From the sequence record PZ445451.1: DNA of 64,000 nucleotides; one strand, 5' to 3'. The translations under genes and the position numbers were made by a program. Of the stretch, positions 2,369-33,282 are shown in pieces; the stretch's first letter is position 1; each line of letters opens with the position of its first letter. The notes under the pieces were generated by a model, which made no database searches, was not told where the DNA came from, and saw only the letters and a list, made by a program, of their open reading frames with translations. The stretch is from a phage.

Positions 2369-2379
2369 AAGGAGATTAA

Positions 2380-5199
2380 ATGTATCCTATTCCTCTATTT
2401 ATGTCAACAACACCAGCTTCAGTAGTAACAGCTACATCTATAACTACTTCCTCTATTGGTATTGCAATAGTTGGTGGTAAAAAACAACTGACATACACAG
2501 TTACACCGGAAGATGGTGCATTATTTGATATAGCTTTTTCATCTTCAGATAATACCAAAATGGTTATAGATAATAGTGGTATGATGGAGTTTGTTGCCGA
2601 AGGTGGTTTTGATGCAATAATGACAGCTAAAAATAATTTAGGTGCTGTCTTAACTGATCAATCTGGTGGTTATGCTTCAGAATTAAGTGTGTACACTGAA
2701 AGTCTATCGGCTATGGATGTAGGCACTACTCAACAGTTAGTTGCTACAATCAGTCCAGAAGGTGCTAAAGACCTTCCAGATATGGTAATTACATACACCA
2801 CAACAGATCCAGAAGTAGCTACTGTAAGCCCTACAGGGTTAATAACTGCTCTTAAAGATGGCGGTTGCCGTATAGGTTGTACTGCAACGTATCAAGGAAC
2901 AGTTGTGGCCTCTGATAGGTCTTATTTAGGTGTTAATGCTATTCCTGTTATTTCTAATGTAACAGCCGTGGCAAACAGTTATGGAGACGTTCGTGTTGCT
3001 TGGGATGTAACTGATCCACTAGACGGTGATACTTATACTGTAGAAGTATTAGATTTAAGTGATAATAGTGTTCAGTGGACTACAACAACCACGAATACTC
3101 ATGCTTACTTTGATATCTCTGACTCTATTCCTCTTTATGGGTTTGCTCCAACATACCTTAAAATTAGCGTTAAGAGCACCAAAGCAGCAGCCGTTATCTT
3201 TAATAACTCAATAGCTACAGATGATTCATTCATTAAAGAAGTTATTGTCTTTGCTGGACAAGATAACGTAAATGCACACTTTACAGAACTATCTGGTGCA
3301 AATAAAGCAGCAATGAGTAGCACAACAGCCCGTAATGCATATGCTGCGCAACGTGGTTTAGCAAATGCTGAAGTTCTTCCGTTAAATACAGCTTCTGGAT
3401 CATCAGCAGCAGATAAATATGCTGACGATAAAGCTGGAACAGGTACACCAGACAATTACTGGTATGATCTGGATAACACAGCAGATGGGCCATGCTTAAC
3501 TAACTTTATCACTAAAGTCACACCTTATGCAAGTAAGGTTAAAGCAATTATTTGGGGACAAGGTGAAAATGATGCTGTATCAGCATCTTCGACTGTTGCA
3601 GGTAGGTACAGTAACACTACACGTTACCATGATGCTACGATAGCTATCTTTGATAAGATGCGTACAATAGTTCCTGCTTCTCAAGCAAAAATTGTTTGGC
3701 AGATCCTAGGACGTTCTTATTTATATGGTGTAGAAGTTAATGGTGTGGATTGGCAGAAGTACAGAAATGTACAAAGAACCATCTCTACAGCACGTGATGA
3801 TGTTATCATTGGTTCTTGGGTAGATGGTGCTGAACGTTACAGTGGCTATGTTTATGAAGAAGGTATTGATGGTCGTATCCATTATGTTTCTTCTGTATAC
3901 CAAACAGCAGCTACAAAACTTGCTAAATCGGCAGCAGACGGTACAGACTTAACATCAACGTCACCTGTTTGGGTTGATATGGCTGTTCCAACTGGAGCAA
4001 CAGCCACTTCCCAATCTAATCAAGATACAATTTTAGCATGGGATGCTCAAGGCTATAGTAAACACTACTTCCGTAATATTAACGTCTTAACCGCATCTGT
4101 ATTAACTGAACAAACGCTTAATACGAACAGTTATACGTTTACCTATGCAGATCAAGTAGAACAATATGGTTTTGCAGCAGGAACTGCTATATTTGATGTT
4201 GCATATTATGACGAAGCAAATGATGTGTTATCTCCTTTAGTACGTTTTAATGTTAATATTACAGCAGGAACCGAAGAAGATAAACCTGTCGTGATGGACT
4301 ATGATTTGACGCAAGAAACTCTCCCATCAGATGTTAAGGTTAATGGTGGGAACTCTTTTGCTCGTGCCTCTGGAGATAAACTTGTAGCCACTAACACCTT
4401 GGTTGCCCCGTTGGAGTATGTTGGTACTACCCCTGTAGGTAGACGTGTAACAGCTAACACAGCTACACAAATTTTTGTCAACAACGCCTTAACAAGTGCA
4501 AGCCCGTGGGTAAAGACCAACTTAACTGTTGCAGCTTCATCTGATAACTCTCCGGCTGGAACTACTGCTAATGTATTCAAATTAACTCCGACTACAACCT
4601 CTGGTAGTCATATCTTAACTGCAACATATACTAACGCGTACAACATATCTGCCGGACGTAACTGGTCTGCCTCTGTTTTCTTGAAAGCGAACGGGATTAC
4701 TAAGGCCAAACTAAGATTAAAAGCAGGAACTGAAGTTAATGAGGGTACTTTTGATTTAGCAGCAGGTACATTCACAGGAAGTGAAGCTAATATTATATCT
4801 ATGGGCAACGGTTGGTATCGTGCTATTCTGCATAAAACAGGGATAGCCAAACAGTCCTCCATAAGTTTTGAAATAATTGCCTTGGATGCAACTGGTGCGG
4901 AGATTTTCGCTGGAAATGGTACTAGTAACCTTGCAGTTTGGTTGCCACAGCTTGAAGGTGCTTCTACAGGAGAAACATCAAAAGCTGGATCGCCTTATGT
5001 CTGCACATATCCTGGAAATTTAGGAGGAGTATCCTTCACTATACCAAGGAACGGACATACTGGTGTGGATGTTTACTATTCCAACGGAGACGTTGTTCGT
5101 GACGTATTCTCTGGTACGGCATCTACTTGGACAATAAACTACTCCAGCTTGTACGATTGGGGATCAGTCTTTATTACAGGTTTGAAATATTACGACTAA
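2380..5199 (+). CDS. Tail fibre/tailspike with Ig-like domain and SGNH/sialate-O-acetylesterase-like motifs
   Basis: ATG after AAGGAG; Big_2-like segment (VGTTQQLVATISPEG...VATVSPTGLITALKDGG); FAGQDN and WGQGEND motifs resembling SGNH esterase blocks; 939 aa. Confidence 0.65.
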   Translation: MYPIPLFMSTTPASVVTATSITTSSIGIAIVGGKKQLTYTVTPEDGALFDIAFSSSDNTKMVIDNSGMMEFVAEGGFDAIMTAKNNLGAVLTDQSGGYASELSVYTESLSAMDVGTTQQLVATISPEGAKDLPDMVITYTTTDPEVATVSPTGLITALKDGGCRIGCTATYQGTVVASDRSYLGVNAIPVISNVTAVANSYGDVRVAWDVTDPLDGDTYTVEVLDLSDNSVQWTTTTTNTHAYFDISDSIPLYGFAPTYLKISVKSTKAAAVIFNNSIATDDSFIKEVIVFAGQDNVNAHFTELSGANKAAMSSTTARNAYAAQRGLANAEVLPLNTASGSSAADKYADDKAGTGTPDNYWYDLDNTADGPCLTNFITKVTPYASKVKAIIWGQGENDAVSASSTVAGRYSNTTRYHDATIAIFDKMRTIVPASQAKIVWQILGRSYLYGVEVNGVDWQKYRNVQRTISTARDDVIIGSWVDGAERYSGYVYEEGIDGRIHYVSSVYQTAATKLAKSAADGTDLTSTSPVWVDMAVPTGATATSQSNQDTILAWDAQGYSKHYFRNINVLTASVLTEQTLNTNSYTFTYADQVEQYGFAAGTAIFDVAYYDEANDVLSPLVRFNVNITAGTEEDKPVVMDYDLTQETLPSDVKVNGGNSFARASGDKLVATNTLVAPLEYVGTTPVGRRVTANTATQIFVNNALTSASPWVKTNLTVAASSDNSPAGTTANVFKLTPTTTSGSHILTATYTNAYNISAGRNWSASVFLKANGITKAKLRLKAGTEVNEGTFDLAAGTFTGSEANIISMGNGWYRAILHKTGIAKQSSISFEIIALDATGAEIFAGNGTSNLAVWLPQLEGASTGETSKAGSPYVCTYPGNLGGVSFTIPRNGHTGVDVYYSNGDVVRDVFSGTASTWTINYSSLYDWGSVFITGLKYYD

Positions 5200-5228
5200 T
5201 AAAAAAGGAGCCATTAGGCTCCTTTTCT
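5200..5228 (+). terminator. Bidirectional hairpin AAGGAGCC-ATTA-GGCTCCTT between converging genes
   Basis: 8 bp stem flanked by A run upstream and T run downstream, between + gene ending 5199 and - gene ending 5235. Confidence 0.6.
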
Positions 5229-5234
5229 TTTATC

Positions 5235-5666
5235 TTAATCAGTGAAAATTACGCTTACATCTTCTTTAGAAAAGAGTTTATGATCTTCACCTTTTGTCTC
5301 AAGAGTTTCATACAGGTTAAGAAGTTCTGAAACATCTTTCTCTACCAGTTTCTTCAATGTTGCAATTTTCTGTTTGCGATTCTTAATACGTTCAGCTACA
5401 ACCTTACGTTGGTATCCAGCAGTACGATAACCTGAGAAAGTTACACCAGTGAGACTTGCAGTTACAGGATCGTAATGACGTTCAATCTGAAATTTATTAA
5501 AAGGTACAGCGTCATCACGAATAATCTTACCGCCATTACTTACTTGACGAAGACCAGTAACTTGTTCCAGTCGTGCCATAGAAATCTTTGGAGATAGACC
5601 AGAATCCAGGTTCATACCGTTGTTAATCAGTGCTTTCAGGGTGATTTTGCTGTTCAGTGTACTCAT
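5235..5666 (-). CDS. Hypothetical protein
   Basis: 143 aa ORF with GGAGG 9 nt upstream of ATG; start overlaps 3' end of methyltransferase gene. Confidence 0.5.
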   Translation of the reverse strand: MSTLNSKITLKALINNGMNLDSGLSPKISMARLEQVTGLRQVSNGGKIIRDDAVPFNKFQIERHYDPVTASLTGVTFSGYRTAGYQRKVVAERIKNRKQKIATLKKLVEKDVSELLNLYETLETKGEDHKLFSKEDVSVIFTD

Positions 5667-9039: not shown

Positions 9040-12000
9040 CTAATGACAACTGGCCCATGAGTTACCAACATCGTACCCAGCAGTGAGAGGTACATTAAGA
9101 TTGTAATACTCACCAGCTTTATTAACAGCGATAGATGCTAATTCTCCAGCACGACTGTAGGCTGTAAACCAACCACCTTTCGGAGATTCATGTACGTTCG
9201 CCCAAATCTTGCCAGTACGTTTCTCTTCCTCTTCTTTCCAGGCATTAACTTTATCCAAACATTCTTTATCAATTTTCTTTTGTTCTTCTGGATCATCAAC
9301 TTGAGTCCAACCTAAAGATTCTTTAGAGAACCATTTAAAATGCACCAGATCACGAGTTACTTCAAGTTGTGCTTCATCGTGATATGCAATCATTTGTTGA
9401 ACGAATGACTTATTTTTCCAGTCATCAACAAAAAAGTCAACAGCTAATCCTTCTTCTTCGATAAGATCGTCGTAGATAACCATTGCTCTTTTTGCACAAA
9501 TAACACCACCACTCTGGAACAGAGAGTTAAGTATTGCGTGTGCAGATCGTGTAGGTACTTTTCTACCATCAATACCGAGAATGTATTTCTTACCTGTTTT
9601 AACCCAAAAGTCATGCAGACGTTCTTTAAGAAGCGCAAGAGGTTTTGCAGCTTCCCAGAAAGCATCGTATACAAGCTGTCCTGTATACATATCACTACCT
9701 ATAGTTTTTGCTACTTTTGCAGCTTGAGCACCATAAGTAATACCATACTTAACAGATTTAGCAGGGCTTCGTTCAAACTTACGACCAATAGTGTCAGAAA
9801 TACGTCGAGCCATCATTGTATGAACATCATTAGGTTTTTCCAATAATAGAGCATTACAATATTCGTGTGGTTCCTGCTCGTACCGCCAACAATTCCCTGT
9901 AATCGTGATGCAGTCTTTCTGACGCATAACCCATGTACCGAGTTCTGTTTGTGGACACCAAACATCTTCTACACCCCATTCTTCAATAGTCAGACTTTGA
10001 ACAGGGATGTGAGAGCGGTTAGCCAACGTTGCCACTTTTACTTTCTGGTCTTTCGTATTGAAGGCTACAGAAATATTACCCCCATGAACCAGGTATGAGG
10101 CAGTTAAGGCTGCTTCAAAAAGTTCTCCTGGGTTCTGCGCCCAGCGCCAAACAGGTTTTTGTTTATGTTTGTGCCAGTAACCATCCGCAATCAAAAAACC
10201 TTCCAAGAAAGCCACACGCTCGGCATGAGACATATTAACTACACGTTCTACCCACGGAACATCCCATTTACCTTGTTGAACAGAAGTTAAACTATTTACT
10301 TGATCTTGTTCCATGTTAAATGGAGCATTACAAATAATGTTATCTCCTGTGCAAAGCTCGGCAGTTGTTCTGACTTTAGGCACATAAGTATTCCCTGTAC
10401 TACGAGTATTAACATACCAACGGTGATCTGCTGTTGCACGATAAGTATGGGATTTTCCTTTAATCTCAAACGTCTTACTATTTTTATAGAAGACCTTACC
10501 TTTTACTTTAGTCCATTCTTTAAGTCCTGTTTCTGGGTTATATCCTAAGATTTCATCCCCTTCTTGTAGATCGTGATAACCAACCCAACCTTTACGGGTT
10601 AGTGCTTGTGCATCCATAGGTACACAGTAGTGTGATTCTATTTTTGCCTCAAGAGAATCAAAGTCATAACCAATTTGGAAGTATTTTGGAACTTCTACAC
10701 CAAATAAGTTACGCATTTCATATCCGTACAGAGATGTTACACGTGGGATATTTGCTACTAACCTATGTTTCATACGAGATGTAGCTGCATCACACGTTGC
10801 AGCAGGAGTTGGTATACGACCATCAGCCCTTACTGCTGCCAGATAACCTTTATCGTAATCCTCTTCATCTTCTTCCCAATCAGCACCACCACCTAGAATA
10901 GAGTTCCTACGGTGTTTATACGTAAGATACTGCACAATCTGCGTAGCATAAGGAAACTTTTCACCCAGTGCTTCCAAGTTAGGACAAATATCTTTCTCTT
11001 GCCCTTTTGTAAAGGAAGGGTTCGTAAGCACTTTAACACCACGACCTTTAGCTTTAGCAATACGATCTCTTAGTTTCCATTCCAAAGTTTCTGGTGTGCA
11101 CTCCAGATGATCACATCTGTCCTGGCAGAAGTTAGATGCTAACGTTTGATCAACATAGTCACGAATAGCTTTCTCCATTTGTGCTTCATCTTTCTTAATC
11201 TTAGTGCCAGATTTAAGAGTGATATCTTTATCTTTGTATTCAGATGGACTCCAACCTAAACCAACTAACCAGTTTTTAATATGTGTAGTGTCGTCTAAAG
11301 TAGCAGGTACTGTAGGATCACAAATAGGTTCTTCTGCTGGAATAGGGAGTTTAAACTCTTTACCTAAAGCAAATAACCACCAACCATCTTCTTTTTGTAC
11401 AAGTTCACCAGAATGTTTCTCTGCAAACTTTATCATGTTACTTGAAGGTTCACCATTCTTTTTAAACTGTAGTTTAGGTGGAATGAATGATTTCAAATAA
11501 CCTTTGGTAGCAGGTTTAGGAGGTAGCACAGGTTCTGCCTCTAAACGACATGCTTCCATTCGAGCATCCAGATCACGAATATTATCTTCTGCTTGTTTCA
11601 TATTGAAAGCAAAGCCACGGTGCTCTTGACGTGTAATAATATCAGCTACACGTTGTTCTAAGTTAAATGGTTCAGACCACTTATTATAATCACCCCACTC
11701 TTCCATCAAATAACGGAACACTGCGGTGTTAGCTTTGTTATCGTAAATACAGTAATACAGCATATCTGCTGCAAATGTTTTAAATCTTTCAGTTTCAGGG
11801 ATGTTTTTTCTAAAATCAATTTTAACATCCCCTCCAGCTTTCTTAGATAACTCTGCCAGACTATGACCACCGAAGCGATCAGGGTTTAGTGTCTTACTTA
11901 AGATCATAGTATCACAAATTTCAATGTTACTATTACCCCAAGTATTGTACTTAATACTGTAGTTGAGTTTAAAAAATAATTTAATTGCCAGTAAGTCGAA

Positions 12001-12354
12001 GTTAATGATGTTGTGTCCAACTACTTTGGTAATTTTATAGTTTGAATTACCTTTAAATTTACCTGTTCCATTTACAAAATCAGGAAAATCTTTAAGAGGG
12101 AAATGGGTATATTCTAAATGCTCATATTCCTCCAATCGGTATTCATACTTTCCGTCAGTCTCAATATACGGACGACCATCGAAAAGATATTTATCACCAT
12201 CATGGAAAGCAATAATCTCTCCAGTATCATGACTTTCGCACACAATACAGTGCATTGCAAAACTATCTTTTAAACGATATGGACTTGCCAAGTAATCTAC
12301 ACTTTCGTCATTAAGCAAGTTGTTACTTTCAATGTCGAAAGTAAAAGCTCCCAT
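9040..12354 (-). CDS. DNA polymerase family A with 3'-5' exonuclease domain, interrupted by an intein
   Basis: Motif A GYDFDSLEAKIESHY, motif B RSPAKSVKYGITYG, motif C AYHDE; AAGGAGG RBS; 245-residue insert between motifs A and B. Confidence 0.9.
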   Translation of the reverse strand: MGAFTFDIESNNLLNDESVDYLASPYRLKDSFAMHCIVCESHDTGEIIAFHDGDKYLFDGRPYIETDGKYEYRLEEYEHLEYTHFPLKDFPDFVNGTGKFKGNSNYKITKVVGHNIINFDLLAIKLFFKLNYSIKYNTWGNSNIEICDTMILSKTLNPDRFGGHSLAELSKKAGGDVKIDFRKNIPETERFKTFAADMLYYCIYDNKANTAVFRYLMEEWGDYNKWSEPFNLEQRVADIITRQEHRGFAFNMKQAEDNIRDLDARMEACRLEAEPVLPPKPATKGYLKSFIPPKLQFKKNGEPSSNMIKFAEKHSGELVQKEDGWWLFALGKEFKLPIPAEEPICDPTVPATLDDTTHIKNWLVGLGWSPSEYKDKDITLKSGTKIKKDEAQMEKAIRDYVDQTLASNFCQDRCDHLECTPETLEWKLRDRIAKAKGRGVKVLTNPSFTKGQEKDICPNLEALGEKFPYATQIVQYLTYKHRRNSILGGGADWEEDEEDYDKGYLAAVRADGRIPTPAATCDAATSRMKHRLVANIPRVTSLYGYEMRNLFGVEVPKYFQIGYDFDSLEAKIESHYCVPMDAQALTRKGWVGYHDLQEGDEILGYNPETGLKEWTKVKGKVFYKNSKTFEIKGKSHTYRATADHRWYVNTRSTGNTYVPKVRTTAELCTGDNIICNAPFNMEQDQVNSLTSVQQGKWDVPWVERVVNMSHAERVAFLEGFLIADGYWHKHKQKPVWRWAQNPGELFEAALTASYLVHGGNISVAFNTKDQKVKVATLANRSHIPVQSLTIEEWGVEDVWCPQTELGTWVMRQKDCITITGNCWRYEQEPHEYCNALLLEKPNDVHTMMARRISDTIGRKFERSPAKSVKYGITYGAQAAKVAKTIGSDMYTGQLVYDAFWEAAKPLALLKERLHDFWVKTGKKYILGIDGRKVPTRSAHAILNSLFQSGGVICAKRAMVIYDDLIEEEGLAVDFFVDDWKNKSFVQQMIAYHDEAQLEVTRDLVHFKWFSKESLGWTQVDDPEEQKKIDKECLDKVNAWKEEEEKRTGKIWANVHESPKGGWFTAYSRAGELASIAVNKAGEYYNLNVPLTAGYDVGNSWASCH
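9892..10626 (-). mobile_element. Intein in DNA polymerase with LAGLIDADG-like homing-endonuclease motif
   Basis: Starts with Cys right after motif A, TADH block B, LEGFLIADGY motif, ends ...ITITGN followed by Cys; removal restores normal A-to-B spacing. Confidence 0.65.
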
Positions 12355-31486: not shown

Positions 31487-33282
31487 AAGTGTTTCTCCCT
31501 TTCTAGTACCTCTTGCATTTTACCTTTATTATAAGGGCGAGAGTTAGGAGCAGAAAGGTATCCTGACACTCTTCTGATCACAGATATGGATTCTTCTTCA
31601 TGATTTCCACAACTTGGACACTCGAAGCCTTTAGCTGTTGCCTTAAATTCACCATGAAAACCACATTTGAAACACTGATCTACAGGTTGGTTCACGCCAA
31701 AATAAGGAATTTTGTTGTAGGCATAATCTACAAGAGTTTCCAGTGCTTGCAAGTTATTTTTAAGGTTTGGTGTTTCTACATAACCTATGTTCCCACCATT
31801 ACTAATTTGTGCAAAACCTTCCTCATAATCCCATTTTTGGAACGGGGTAGTGTGCATCCATACAGGTTGATGGAAAGAGTTTGTCAAGTAGTCACGATCA
31901 ATAGAACCAGGATAGCGATCATTTAATGCTTTGGCAAATTTATAGCACAAGGATTCTGCTGGTGTTCCATACAAACTAAAAGCTAAACCAGAACGTTCTT
32001 TAAATGTGCAACAGATATCCTTCATATATTGAAGGATGTTTTTACCCATTGCTTTTGGATTGGTGTTATTTGGGTATAAAATCTCCATAGCTTCTGCTAA
32101 ACCTACATAACCGATACTAATAGAGGCATAACCACCTTCAAATAGTTTACCAATCTCTTCATTAGCTTCTAGTCGAGCTAAAGCCCCTTCCATAAACAAT
32201 GTAGGGTTTTGAGATGCTTTGGTATGTCTAATACGGTTAACACGTAGCATATGTGCCTTATACGCCATCTCCATATGTTGTTCCAGCAGTTCAGTAAATA
32301 AGATGCCCTTTTCACGGGATTCTGCTGCAATGATAGGTAAGTTTAAAGAAACTACGCCTAAATTGAAACGACCATCATATTTTTCACCTTGCTCTGTTGC
32401 ATAGTATGACAAGAAACTACGGCAACCCATGCTTGTGACGCGACCATCTGAAGATCCTGTAACTTCTTTGTTTAAAGGTACAGAGATAAAATCAGGATAA
32501 ATGCGTTCAGCACAACACTCCATTGCCAGTTGCTTCAGATCATAGTTTGGATCGCCAGCTTTCATGTTAACACCATCTTCCAAGAAGAAGATAACTTTAG
32601 GAAACACAGGAGTTACCCTATCTTTTCCTAATCCTTGTTTGTGCACCATTAGGTAGTTTTTAGTGATCATTCTACCAAAAGCAGAGGTATCCAAACCTAA
32701 ACTAATTGTTATAAAAGGTGACTGACCATTTACACTCATTAGGGTGTTCACCTGGTAGATTAAAGTTTGCATTGCATCATAGACCTGTTTATCTACCATA
32801 CGCATAGCAATATCATAATCGCCAACATCGGCATATATTTTATTAAAACTTGCTTTAACGTATTGACTAAGCCCAGTATCAATATGTGCACAAGTTTGTC
32901 CACCATATTGGCTAGAAGCTACTGCTTGAATAATTTGAGTTAGGACAGTAGTCGCTACACCGATAGACTTTGGTTTTTCAATATGTGCATTACCAATACG
33001 GAAACCGTTCTCAAGCATATCTTGGTAATTTACCAGGCAACAATTAGTTAGAGGTGAGAGTAAATAATCTAAATCGTGAATGTGACCATACCCACTTTTA
33101 TGCCATTCTGCCAGATCTTCCGGTAAAATATGGGTCATTGCCATGTGCTTGCTTAGGATACCTGCTAGTAAGTCTCGGTGAGTATTAACAATCATTGCAG
33201 GTTTGTTTGCATTTTCACGAGTAAATTCTTCGGATGTTTGTTCGAGGAATCCGATTACATCCTCATATAGTTTTTGGGTCAT
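31483..33282 (-). CDS. nrdD: Anaerobic ribonucleoside-triphosphate reductase
   Basis: C-terminal zinc ribbon CFKCGFHGEF...CPSCGN and glycyl-radical motif RRVSGY; start set at ATG 5 nt after GGAGG instead of track start inside hairpin. Confidence 0.9.
   Translation of the reverse strand: MTQKLYEDVIGFLEQTSEEFTRENANKPAMIVNTHRDLLAGILSKHMAMTHILPEDLAEWHKSGYGHIHDLDYLLSPLTNCCLVNYQDMLENGFRIGNAHIEKPKSIGVATTVLTQIIQAVASSQYGGQTCAHIDTGLSQYVKASFNKIYADVGDYDIAMRMVDKQVYDAMQTLIYQVNTLMSVNGQSPFITISLGLDTSAFGRMITKNYLMVHKQGLGKDRVTPVFPKVIFFLEDGVNMKAGDPNYDLKQLAMECCAERIYPDFISVPLNKEVTGSSDGRVTSMGCRSFLSYYATEQGEKYDGRFNLGVVSLNLPIIAAESREKGILFTELLEQHMEMAYKAHMLRVNRIRHTKASQNPTLFMEGALARLEANEEIGKLFEGGYASISIGYVGLAEAMEILYPNNTNPKAMGKNILQYMKDICCTFKERSGLAFSLYGTPAESLCYKFAKALNDRYPGSIDRDYLTNSFHQPVWMHTTPFQKWDYEEGFAQISNGGNIGYVETPNLKNNLQALETLVDYAYNKIPYFGVNQPVDQCFKCGFHGEFKATAKGFECPSCGNHEEESISVIRRVSGYLSAPNSRPYNKGKMQEVLEREKHF

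Follow-up and report, generated by a model that had tools for sequence, protein, structure and literature searches.

Introduction

SGNH domains in phage fibres are already well known. The esterase tailspikes and fibres of the G7C gp63.1 (PDB 4qnl), Possum and Moo19/B2 type keep the Ser-His(-Asp) site intact, are built as trimeric spikes, belong to a different SGNH subfamily from the domain described here, and have been demonstrated to deacetylate O-antigen. The closest solved relative of this domain is in phage N4 gp65 (PDB 9lc0, 9yf4 and 9yf5), a 1382-aa podovirus protein that is both a non-contractile tail sheath subunit and a receptor-binding protein. N4 gp65 carries NCTSP_N and a split TIM barrel along with its SGNH-like and FN3 modules (aa 724-1073 and 439-602), and its full SGNH-like domain has Gln for the nucleophile Ser and Tyr for the His. 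Phage phi92 gp142 has a predicted deacetylase domain and was proposed to bind the N4 glycan receptor (NGR) in Vequintavirus and Justusliebigvirus; Vequintavirus phages are NGR-dependent.

The phi92-like phages are among the coliphages with the broadest host ranges, and serve through their fibre set as a template for engineering host range. Sorting real enzyme domains from binding or scaffold modules alters how such fibres are annotated, assayed and recombined. Here we describe a fibre protein of this group with an esterase-like domain that has Asp in place of the nucleophile Ser.

Results

The window analysed was a 64,000-nucleotide stretch of phage DNA (PZ445451.1). Positions 2380-5199 on the + strand correspond to exactly one ORF of 939 aa in the ORF list, which is 100% identical to MZ501100.1 35055-37874 and encodes bas60_0037 of PaulScherrer, a Justusliebigvirus that infects E. 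coli and belongs to the phi92-like phages. The gene and its flanking signals are as follows.

2370..2375, + strand: ribosome-binding site AAGGAG, 4 nt 5' of the ATG (direct sequence reading)
2380..5199, + strand: CDS, lateral tail fibre protein bas60_0037, Escherichia phage PaulScherrer (ORF list)
5203..5236, + strand: strong intrinsic terminator after the stop codon, a 10-bp stem followed by a T-run (hairpin 5203-5226)

The terminator ends a rightward fibre operon of which bas60_0037 is the final gene. Related records annotate terminators at the same place, and an AGGAG motif is likewise annotated ahead of the counterpart gene in the phi92 record. The product carries the annotation lateral tail fibre and matched PHROG families 32204 and 11922, both 'tail protein'. 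Some database records of the protein already carry the product name 'tail carbohydrate esterase' and one orthologue is labelled 'non-contractile tail sheath'. Searching for related loci with the single bas60_0037 protein returned only two near-identical IMG/VR loci.

The protein is a string of domains in the order Big_2, Big_2, FN3, SGNH-like, FN3 and a swappable CBM-like tip.

2452..2904, + strand: two bacterial Ig-like (Big_2) domains, aa ~25-175 (Pfam, PHROG, tblastn)
2935..3186, + strand: FN3-like beta-sandwich a, aa ~186-269 (match in representative P0007)
3235..3954, + strand: SGNH-fold, SASA-type esterase-like domain without the nucleophile serine, aa ~286-525
3982..4263, + strand: FN3-like beta-sandwich b, aa ~535-628 (model strands; FN3 matches by Foldseek)
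4264..4458, + strand: low-confidence linker, aa 629-693 (pLDDT 32-58, C-terminal model)
4459..4986, + strand: C-terminal beta-sandwich, CBM/lectin-like, aa ~694-869 (pLDDT about 90)

Big_2 was matched in Pfam at E 1.4e-13 (51 bits against a threshold of 22.8) over two stretches, the stronger at aa 112-169, and PHROG Ig-domain families also matched the N-terminal part. This part is common to fibre proteins of Phapecoctavirus and other phages, and many other phages matched bas60_0037 by tblastn only over aa 35-220. The Phapecoctavirus homologues have the same N- and C-terminal parts and a different middle. The first FN3-like sandwich was placed using representative P0007, which is 87% identical to the bas60_0037 protein and matched the FN3 part of the family profile over aa 172-269 (E 3.6e-11). 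Divergence rises sharply at the second FN3-like sandwich (75% identity), and short alleles stop there (muut_214 at 628 aa and Av05_00106 at 647 aa). Only long alleles have the C-terminal beta-sandwich, which is swapped between phages. Its top Foldseek matches were the tail fibres of Pseudomonas phages Pa193 and E217 (E 1e-8 and 5e-7) followed by CBM27, 61, 22 and 36, and Laminin_G_3 was matched by 9 of 40 homologues. It is probably the distal glycan-binding tip.

The central domain has the SGNH fold of the sialate-O-acetylesterase (SASA) type. The model has the three-layer alpha/beta/alpha arrangement with five parallel strands, and relatives gathered by exhaustive HMMER search produced an alignment of 83 domain copies. 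The Pfam SASA family (PF03629) scored the protein below its gathering threshold of 24.8 bits (14.8 for the whole protein and 16.1 for the domain) and aligned only the WGQGEND stretch, and 18 of 34 relatives matched SASA at E <= 0.01. The single-sequence score would fit a chance resemblance of the motifs in a region that is not an esterase-type domain, but this reading is extremely improbable as the family alignment, profile searches and predicted fold already refute it. The domain descends from true acetyl-esterases. The original prediction, made from the DNA letters, had placed SGNH/sialate-O-acetylesterase-like motifs FAGQDN and WGQGEND in this gene, and both are real (aa 291-296 and 392-398) and correspond to blocks I and III of a SASA-type domain. 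It had named the lack of an SGNH fold as counter-evidence, and HMM and fold assignment instead found that fold. It had also called the product a fibre or tailspike; fibre agrees with the operon, annotation and PHROG matches, while tailspike does not fit a string of Ig-like and FN3 domains that has a CBM-like tip and no beta-helix.

The active-site blocks were located in the domain as follows.

3250..3267, + strand: block I FAGQDN, aa 291-296, with Asp295 (codon 3262-3264) at the nucleophile Ser position of GQSN
3385..3408, + strand: block II region NTASGSSA, including Gly340
3553..3573, + strand: block III WGQGEND, aa 392-398 (Trp392, Gln394, Gly395, Glu396, Asp398)
3868..3885, + strand: block V DGRIHY, aa 497-502, with His501 (3880-3882) kept; missed in the original prediction

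Block I reads GQDN in bas60_0037 where the canonical motif is GQSN. Asp295, which the model places where strand 1 ends and helix 1 begins, occupies a column with Ser in 61 of the 83 aligned copies and Asp in eight, which confirms that Asp stands where the catalytic Ser was expected. The eight Asp copies are made up of the bas60_0037 clade, a sister clade and one unrelated copy, and Asp was found at this position in all bas60_0037 orthologues examined. The bas60_0037 lineage retains all the remaining canonical pocket residues at ~45% identity to Ser-bearing relatives. The block II Gly, 88% conserved in canonical members, is retained as Gly340 and is Ala or Ile in the sister lineage. The five block III residues follow WxQGExD and all match invariant or nearly invariant positions of the family; together with Gly340 they presumably form the oxyanion hole, as in SGNH hydrolases generally. 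In block V the position three before His501, Asp in 62% of canonical members, is Gly498, and an Asp (Asp497) is found at -4. Compared with SASA-type SGNH hydrolases (PF03629; 1zmb, 2apj and NanS 3pt5) the bas60_0037 domain has Asp for the nucleophile Ser, is missing the DxxH acid, scores under the Pfam gathering threshold and is set in a phage fibre between FN3 domains. It also differs from esterase tailspikes of the G7C gp63.1 type, as the nucleophile of their intact Ser-His-Asp site is absent.

The sister lineage is 48% identical to the bas60_0037 lineage and has the same Ser-to-Asp change; Asp295-Asn296 is invariant in both lineages despite this distance. Members of the sister lineage do not have block I Gln294, block II Gly340 or block III Gln394, and His501 is also gone in some (Gln in P0001 and P0002). 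This loss of pocket residues is expected if catalysis had already gone. The nearest outgroup includes Ser forms and one Ser-to-Ala form (P0011). The Ser-to-Asp change shared by the bas60_0037 clade and its sister arose once. Purifying selection acts on the domain (pN/pS 0.05-0.19), which is 98-99% identical at the amino acid level as compared to 75% in the flanking FN3-like sandwich b. By these sequence comparisons the SGNH-like domain is being maintained and is not decaying.

The SGNH-like and FN3 domains are homologous in sequence and structure to the adsorption module of N4 gp65. BLASTP of bas60_0037 against the N4 gp65 modules gave E 1e-12 and 3e-12, the family profile matched N4 gp65 at E 1e-144, Foldseek of the SGNH-like domain gave E 3e-24 with a TM score of 0.76, and bas60_0037 matched PHROG 15324 at E 2.8e-37. 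A phmmer search of the whole protein against the PDB returned an Ig-like match only; N4 gp65 was reached with the family profile. In both proteins FN3 repeats of the same type come after the SGNH-like domain, both serve adsorption, and the nucleophile Ser is absent from both full-length SGNH-like domains, with His retained in bas60_0037 as compared to Tyr in N4 gp65. Unlike N4 gp65, bas60_0037 has Big_2 domains at its N-terminus and a CBM-like tip. In Pfam searches NCTSP_N and the NCTSP TIM barrel (PF23844 and PF23845) were not found in bas60_0037; in PaulScherrer both sit in a separate gene, bas60_0026. The 'non-contractile tail sheath' label is therefore a transfer from partial homology.

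bas60_0026, the orthologue of phi92 gp142, lies in the same fibre gene cluster of the same phage and likewise shares homology with parts of the N4 sheath proteins. Its NCTSP_N and TIM barrel with the GMSHY motif have homologues in N4 gp64 and in gp65 (aa 55-109 and 340-416); neither GMSHY nor the TIM barrel was found in bas60_0037. We considered bas60_0037 as the published NGR deacetylase fibre and rejected this, as that fibre is bas60_0026. We also rejected bas60_0037 as a shared NGR determinant, as its SGNH-like domain is near-absent from rV5-like phage records by tblastn. The exceptions in that search were four short-form homologues of ~47% identity in Av-05, TH18, 19-1-2 and 24-2-1. The first of these, Av-05, belongs to Avunavirus in the Vequintavirinae.

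Discussion

We read the retained SGNH-like domain of bas60_0037 as an esterase-like module that is probably non-catalytic and would most likely bind host sugars rather than remove acetyl groups. The account that we favour, at somewhat better than even odds, is that bas60_0037 is an accessory lateral tail fibre built as beads on a string, attached by its conserved N-terminal part, that carries a selected, non-hydrolysing, sugar-docking SGNH module and a CBM-like tip. The nucleophile Ser would have become Asp in the ancestor of the bas60_0037 clade, and purifying selection has preserved the domain since then, most probably in a non-hydrolysing role. In the PaulScherrer lineage the pocket is otherwise intact (Gly293, Gln294, Asn296, Gly340, Gln394, Gly395, Glu396, Asp398 and His501) and may dock a surface sugar that is acetylated or otherwise decorated without cleaving it. 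Pocket and tip together could then let the fibre adhere reversibly and multivalently to glycans of the host surface. The N4 gp65 domain, which has neither Ser nor His and is still part of a receptor-binding protein, supports this account. Against it, Asp can act as the nucleophile or as the general base of hydrolases with other folds, and retention of His501, Gln394 and Gly340 is equally expected of a working non-canonical site. In addition, the phi92 copy (gene 152/153 region) is disrupted in its record, where an apparent 218-nt deletion takes out the stretch of FN3-like sandwich a (aa ~186-269) and two apparent frameshifts occur, so that some hosts may not require the gene.

Such a site would use Asp295, together with His501, as nucleophile or general base and strip acetyl groups from host glycans as the G7C gp63.1 tailspike does. 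The conservation of the block II Gly, the block III Gln-Gly-Glu-x-Asp and the block V His in the PaulScherrer lineage, the invariance of Asp295-Asn296 over two lineages just 48% identical and the strong purifying selection are all consistent with this, as is the name 'tail carbohydrate esterase' on some records, but names of that kind stem from similarity of fold or profile and not from assay. The sister lineage with the same Asp has lost Gln294, Gly340, Gln394 and sometimes His501, the triad acid position at -3 from the His is Gly, a close relative has Ala at the nucleophile site and the corresponding domain of N4 gp65 is plainly inactive. No SGNH hydrolase is known to us that uses Asp as its nucleophile. 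We consider a working deacetylase of this kind unlikely. The possible receptor-modifying deacetylase of the original prediction is not supported in the form given: Ser is replaced by Asp clade-wide, the DxxH Asp is missing (Gly498), the sister pocket is eroded, the N4 gp65 equivalent has Gln and Tyr, and the published deacetylase fibre is bas60_0026. Its caveat that the domain may be divergent or inactive is the better supported half, and its interpretation overall is partly supported. A purely structural role has a somewhat larger share of the remaining probability and is still the weaker candidate next to sugar docking. The domain would then be a spacer, or a docking module against fibre or baseplate proteins, with all receptor contact made by the C-terminal CBM-like or the Ig-like domains. 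The packing of the gp65 domain in the N4 sheath scaffold offers an analogy, and the Phapecoctavirus homologues join the same ends to a different middle. The sister lineage keeps the domain despite its eroded pocket, which argues that the function shared across the clade can do without the pocket and thereby speaks for a structural role rather than sugar binding. However, the short alleles (628-647 aa) stop after SGNH-FN3 and lack a further tip domain, which means that part of this module must be the working end, and the PaulScherrer lineage has kept the pocket minus Ser over the same time span in which the sister lost it.

With the N4 gp65 link, the known homology of N4-like podoviruses to phi92-like myoviruses grows from a single fibre gene to two, which bears on whether their shared NGR dependence came by module exchange. 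A broader reading, which we regard as rather doubtful, is that the Asp-for-Ser pocket, otherwise intact and under selection, would be a new SGNH functional type, either an Asp/His hydrolase of a host surface glycan or a dedicated acetyl-sugar lectin, that bas60_0037 paired with bas60_0026 would correspond in myoviruses to the N4 gp64/gp65 sheath, and that a common, horizontally exchanged set of modules that recognise NGR and its exporter NfrA, and not convergence, would underlie the host range that N4-like podoviruses share with phi92-like myoviruses. As a single case bas60_0037 is a modest, hypothesis-level result.

Identity and domain architecture of bas60_0037

The window comes from Escherichia phage PaulScherrer (Bas60, MZ501100.1), a phi92-like phage of the genus Justusliebigvirus, and window position 1 is position 32676 of MZ501100.1. 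The region originally predicted to encode a fibre or tailspike with SGNH-esterase-like motifs was exactly one ORF, bas60_0037, the final gene in a rightward fibre operon. The record annotates it as 'lateral tail fiber protein with intimin and glycosidase domains', and near-identical orthologues are labelled 'tail protein', 'tail carbohydrate esterase' or 'non-contractile tail sheath' in other records.

2370-2375, ribosome-binding site AAGGAG of bas60_0037
2380-5199 (+), bas60_0037, 939 aa
aa ~25-175, two Big_2 domains (Pfam)
aa ~186-269, FN3-like domain (FN3a)
aa ~286-525, SGNH-like domain (model and Foldseek)
aa 291-296, FAGQDN, SASA-type block I
aa 392-398, WGQGEND, SASA-type block III
aa 497-502, DGRIHY, block V, a further motif
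aa ~535-628, FN3-like domain (FN3b; model and Foldseek)
aa ~694-869, C-terminal tip, beta-sandwich (pLDDT about 90)
5203-5226, terminator with a 10-bp stem, closing the operon

The product lines up small domains in a row, with distal modules that can be exchanged, and is not a beta-helix tailspike. A low-confidence linker follows FN3b. Structurally, the tip best matched the tail fibres of the Pseudomonas phages Pa193 and E217 and, after these, carbohydrate-binding modules. Laminin_G_3 was matched by 9 of 40 sequence homologues.

The upstream gene (379-2340, +) is a fibre gene orthologous to phi92 gp151. Its N-terminal domain is Tail_spike_N (TSP1/gp66-type), it contains collagen-like GXY repeats, and it matches fibritin-C weakly; between it and bas60_0037 lies a hairpin (2344-2361). 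Elsewhere in the window, the DNA polymerase gene bas60_0044 (~9040-12354, -) contains an intein according to the record annotation.

The domain belongs to an SGNH-type family

Pfam searches of bas60_0037 returned the two Big_2 domains and a sub-threshold SASA (PF03629) match spanning WGQGEND (E 0.022 with the full-length protein, 0.0088 with the domain). As the SASA match alone was weak, a family was built around the domain. Searching 1.84 billion representatives exhaustively with HMMER yielded 77 relatives, many of them very long proteins with 2-3 domain copies and trailing FN3-like repeats. Alignment of 83 domain copies gave the consensus AGQSN / WAQGExD / D..vHY, corresponding to SASA-type blocks I, III and V, and Pfam SASA was matched by 18 of 34 aligned members (best 1.5e-13). 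An AlphaFold2 model of aa 270-640 built with the family alignment (pLDDT 94.8, pTM 0.90) had an alpha/beta domain with five strands and, after it, a beta-sandwich. Asp295 was located where strand 1 ends and helix 1 begins and His501 in the loop preceding the last long helix, the canonical sites of the SGNH nucleophile and base. The alignment, SASA matches and model therefore confirmed the originally noticed FAGQDN and WGQGEND as SGNH-type blocks, far beyond chance, and the fold prediction proposed at that time as a check was positive.

In some canonical Ser-bearing relatives (e.g. the library representative P0061) the domain was joined to RTX calcium-binding repeats. As these proteins are secreted by bacteria, the family reaches beyond phages.

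Replacement of the nucleophile Ser

The nucleophile column held Ser in 61 of the 83 copies, bearing out the earlier observation that Asp stands at the expected catalytic Ser of block I. Asp was found in eight copies: the bas60_0037 domain, its representative at 87% identity, five Av-05-like short forms of 645-648 aa (48% identical) and one unrelated half domain. The bas60_0037 and short-form clades were sisters in a neighbour-joining tree, making a single Ser-to-Asp change the simplest history; their nearest outgroup had Ser three times and Ala once. Conserved columns were audited against 40 canonical Ser-Gln-His members. Across nine invariant columns the bas60_0037 domain showed a single difference, Ser295 to Asp, and it also lacked the DxxH acid (Gly498). 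Beyond Ser, the short-form clade had lost Gln294, block II Gly340 and Gln394, and two of its five members had lost His501, as would be expected if hydrolysis went with, or before, the Ser-to-Asp change.

Despite the loss of Ser the domain is not decaying. Comparison of PaulScherrer with four other Justusliebigvirus alleles gave a pN/pS of 0.05-0.19 and 98-99% identity for the SGNH-like domain and identity down to 75% for the adjacent FN3b, and GQDN, WGQGEND and RIHY were identical across all five orthologous loci examined. The bas60_0037 lineage kept its pocket complete except for Ser over the same time that the sister lineage lost its own, and we therefore think that the pocket is still used. 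Such a pocket would most plausibly bind a substituent on a sugar and leave it uncleaved, and judging from these alignments we lean toward a serine-less module that derives from an esterase and is retained for binding. Retention of the same module for a purely structural role is less likely given the otherwise intact pocket. A non-canonical Asp/His enzyme, with His501 at the base site, is unlikely, as is the receptor-modifying deacetylase of the original prediction, given Asp at the Ser site, the missing DxxH acid and the further pocket losses in the sister clade. The functional reading should be reversed, with binding or architecture more likely than deacetylation. The finding was partly anticipated by automatic annotations.

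Relationship to phage N4 gp65 and gp64

The closest relative of known structure was the phage N4 'non-contractile tail sheath' protein gp65 (PDB 9lc0, 9yf4, 9yf5), matched by the family profile at E 1e-144. The matched stretches were a full domain with FN3 (aa 724-1073), the N-terminal half of a domain (aa 439-602) and three more FN3 repeats. Foldseek aligned the entire model with gp65 (E 3e-24, TM 0.76). BLASTP of bas60_0037 against gp65 gave E 1e-12 and 3e-12, with gp65 aa 428-603, 619-1059 and 1203-1258 matched, and bas60_0037 matched PHROG 15324, 'tail sheath and receptor binding protein', at 2.8e-37. The N4 structural paper describes gp65 as the receptor-binding sheath subunit, in a heterodimer with gp64, and does not apply the words SGNH or esterase to gp65. 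The full domain of gp65 differs from bas60_0037 in carrying GINQF and SWIYY, with Gln at the Ser site and Tyr at the His site.

N4 appears to have a second SGNH-like domain with its halves on two chains, gp65 aa 439-602 and gp64 aa 15-77. The gp65 N-terminal half keeps Ser (FAGESQ, WGQGDQD) and the gp64 C-terminal half carries His (GQIHF). The NCTSP TIM barrel is likewise split (gp65 aa 374-416, gp64 aa 109-407). This nested, chain-crossing arrangement may hold the heterodimer together, and the split domain could be the real esterase site of N4.

It is well established that receptor-binding proteins of phages can carry SGNH esterase domains. [quoted passage not shown] We rejected bas60_0037 as this fibre; the gp142 counterpart is bas60_0026 (L004 7928-10087, outside the window), which has the GMSHY motif (aa 338) together with Pfam NCTSP_N and the whole NCTSP TIM barrel, all three absent from bas60_0037. 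It matched N4 gp64 (E 4e-32) and gp65 aa 55-109 and 340-416. Jointly, bas60_0026 and bas60_0037 have homologues of most gp64/gp65 sheath modules (NCTSP_N, TIM barrel, SGNH-like domains, FN3 repeats). This looks less like the convergence that a 2026 preprint proposes than like common ancestry or an exchange of modules, and our literature search found no paper noting gp65-module homology for bas60_0037. Searching rV5-like phage records with the SGNH-like domain recovered nothing beyond four short-form homologues at ~47% identity (Av-05, TH18, 19-1-2, 24-2-1), and the domain therefore cannot be the common NGR determinant.

Allele forms

The complete 939-aa form was found in only about 27 phage records. 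A short form ending after FN3b occurred in many Justusliebigvirus phages (e.g. muut, 628 aa) and in Avunavirus Av-05 (647 aa), and in Phapecoctavirus proteins the N- and C-terminal parts were similar and the middle was different. Divergence between the long alleles of 939 aa and the short ones of 628-647 aa, which concerns window 3982-5199, jumped at about aa 531, with FN3b 75% identical at a pS of 0.59 as compared to a pS of 0.04-0.09 for the SGNH domain, marking a recombination boundary directly after the SGNH domain.

The phi92 copy (L005 2911-4573, from NC_023693.1; genes 152/153), compared with window 2380-4263, lacked nt 591-808 of the bas60_0037 gene, a 218-nt stretch spanning FN3a. A 1-nt deletion and a 2-nt insertion in its SGNH part put block I out of frame with blocks III and V, indicating either a pseudogene in the type phage or errors in its record. 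Two 146,366-bp records named 'Campylobacter phage', for which C. jejuni is given as host, MG065689.1 (A110a) and MG065656.1 (C3), carried the bas60_0037 gene in a form 94-98% identical to that of E. coli Justusliebigvirus phages and are probably mislabelled or contaminant genomes.
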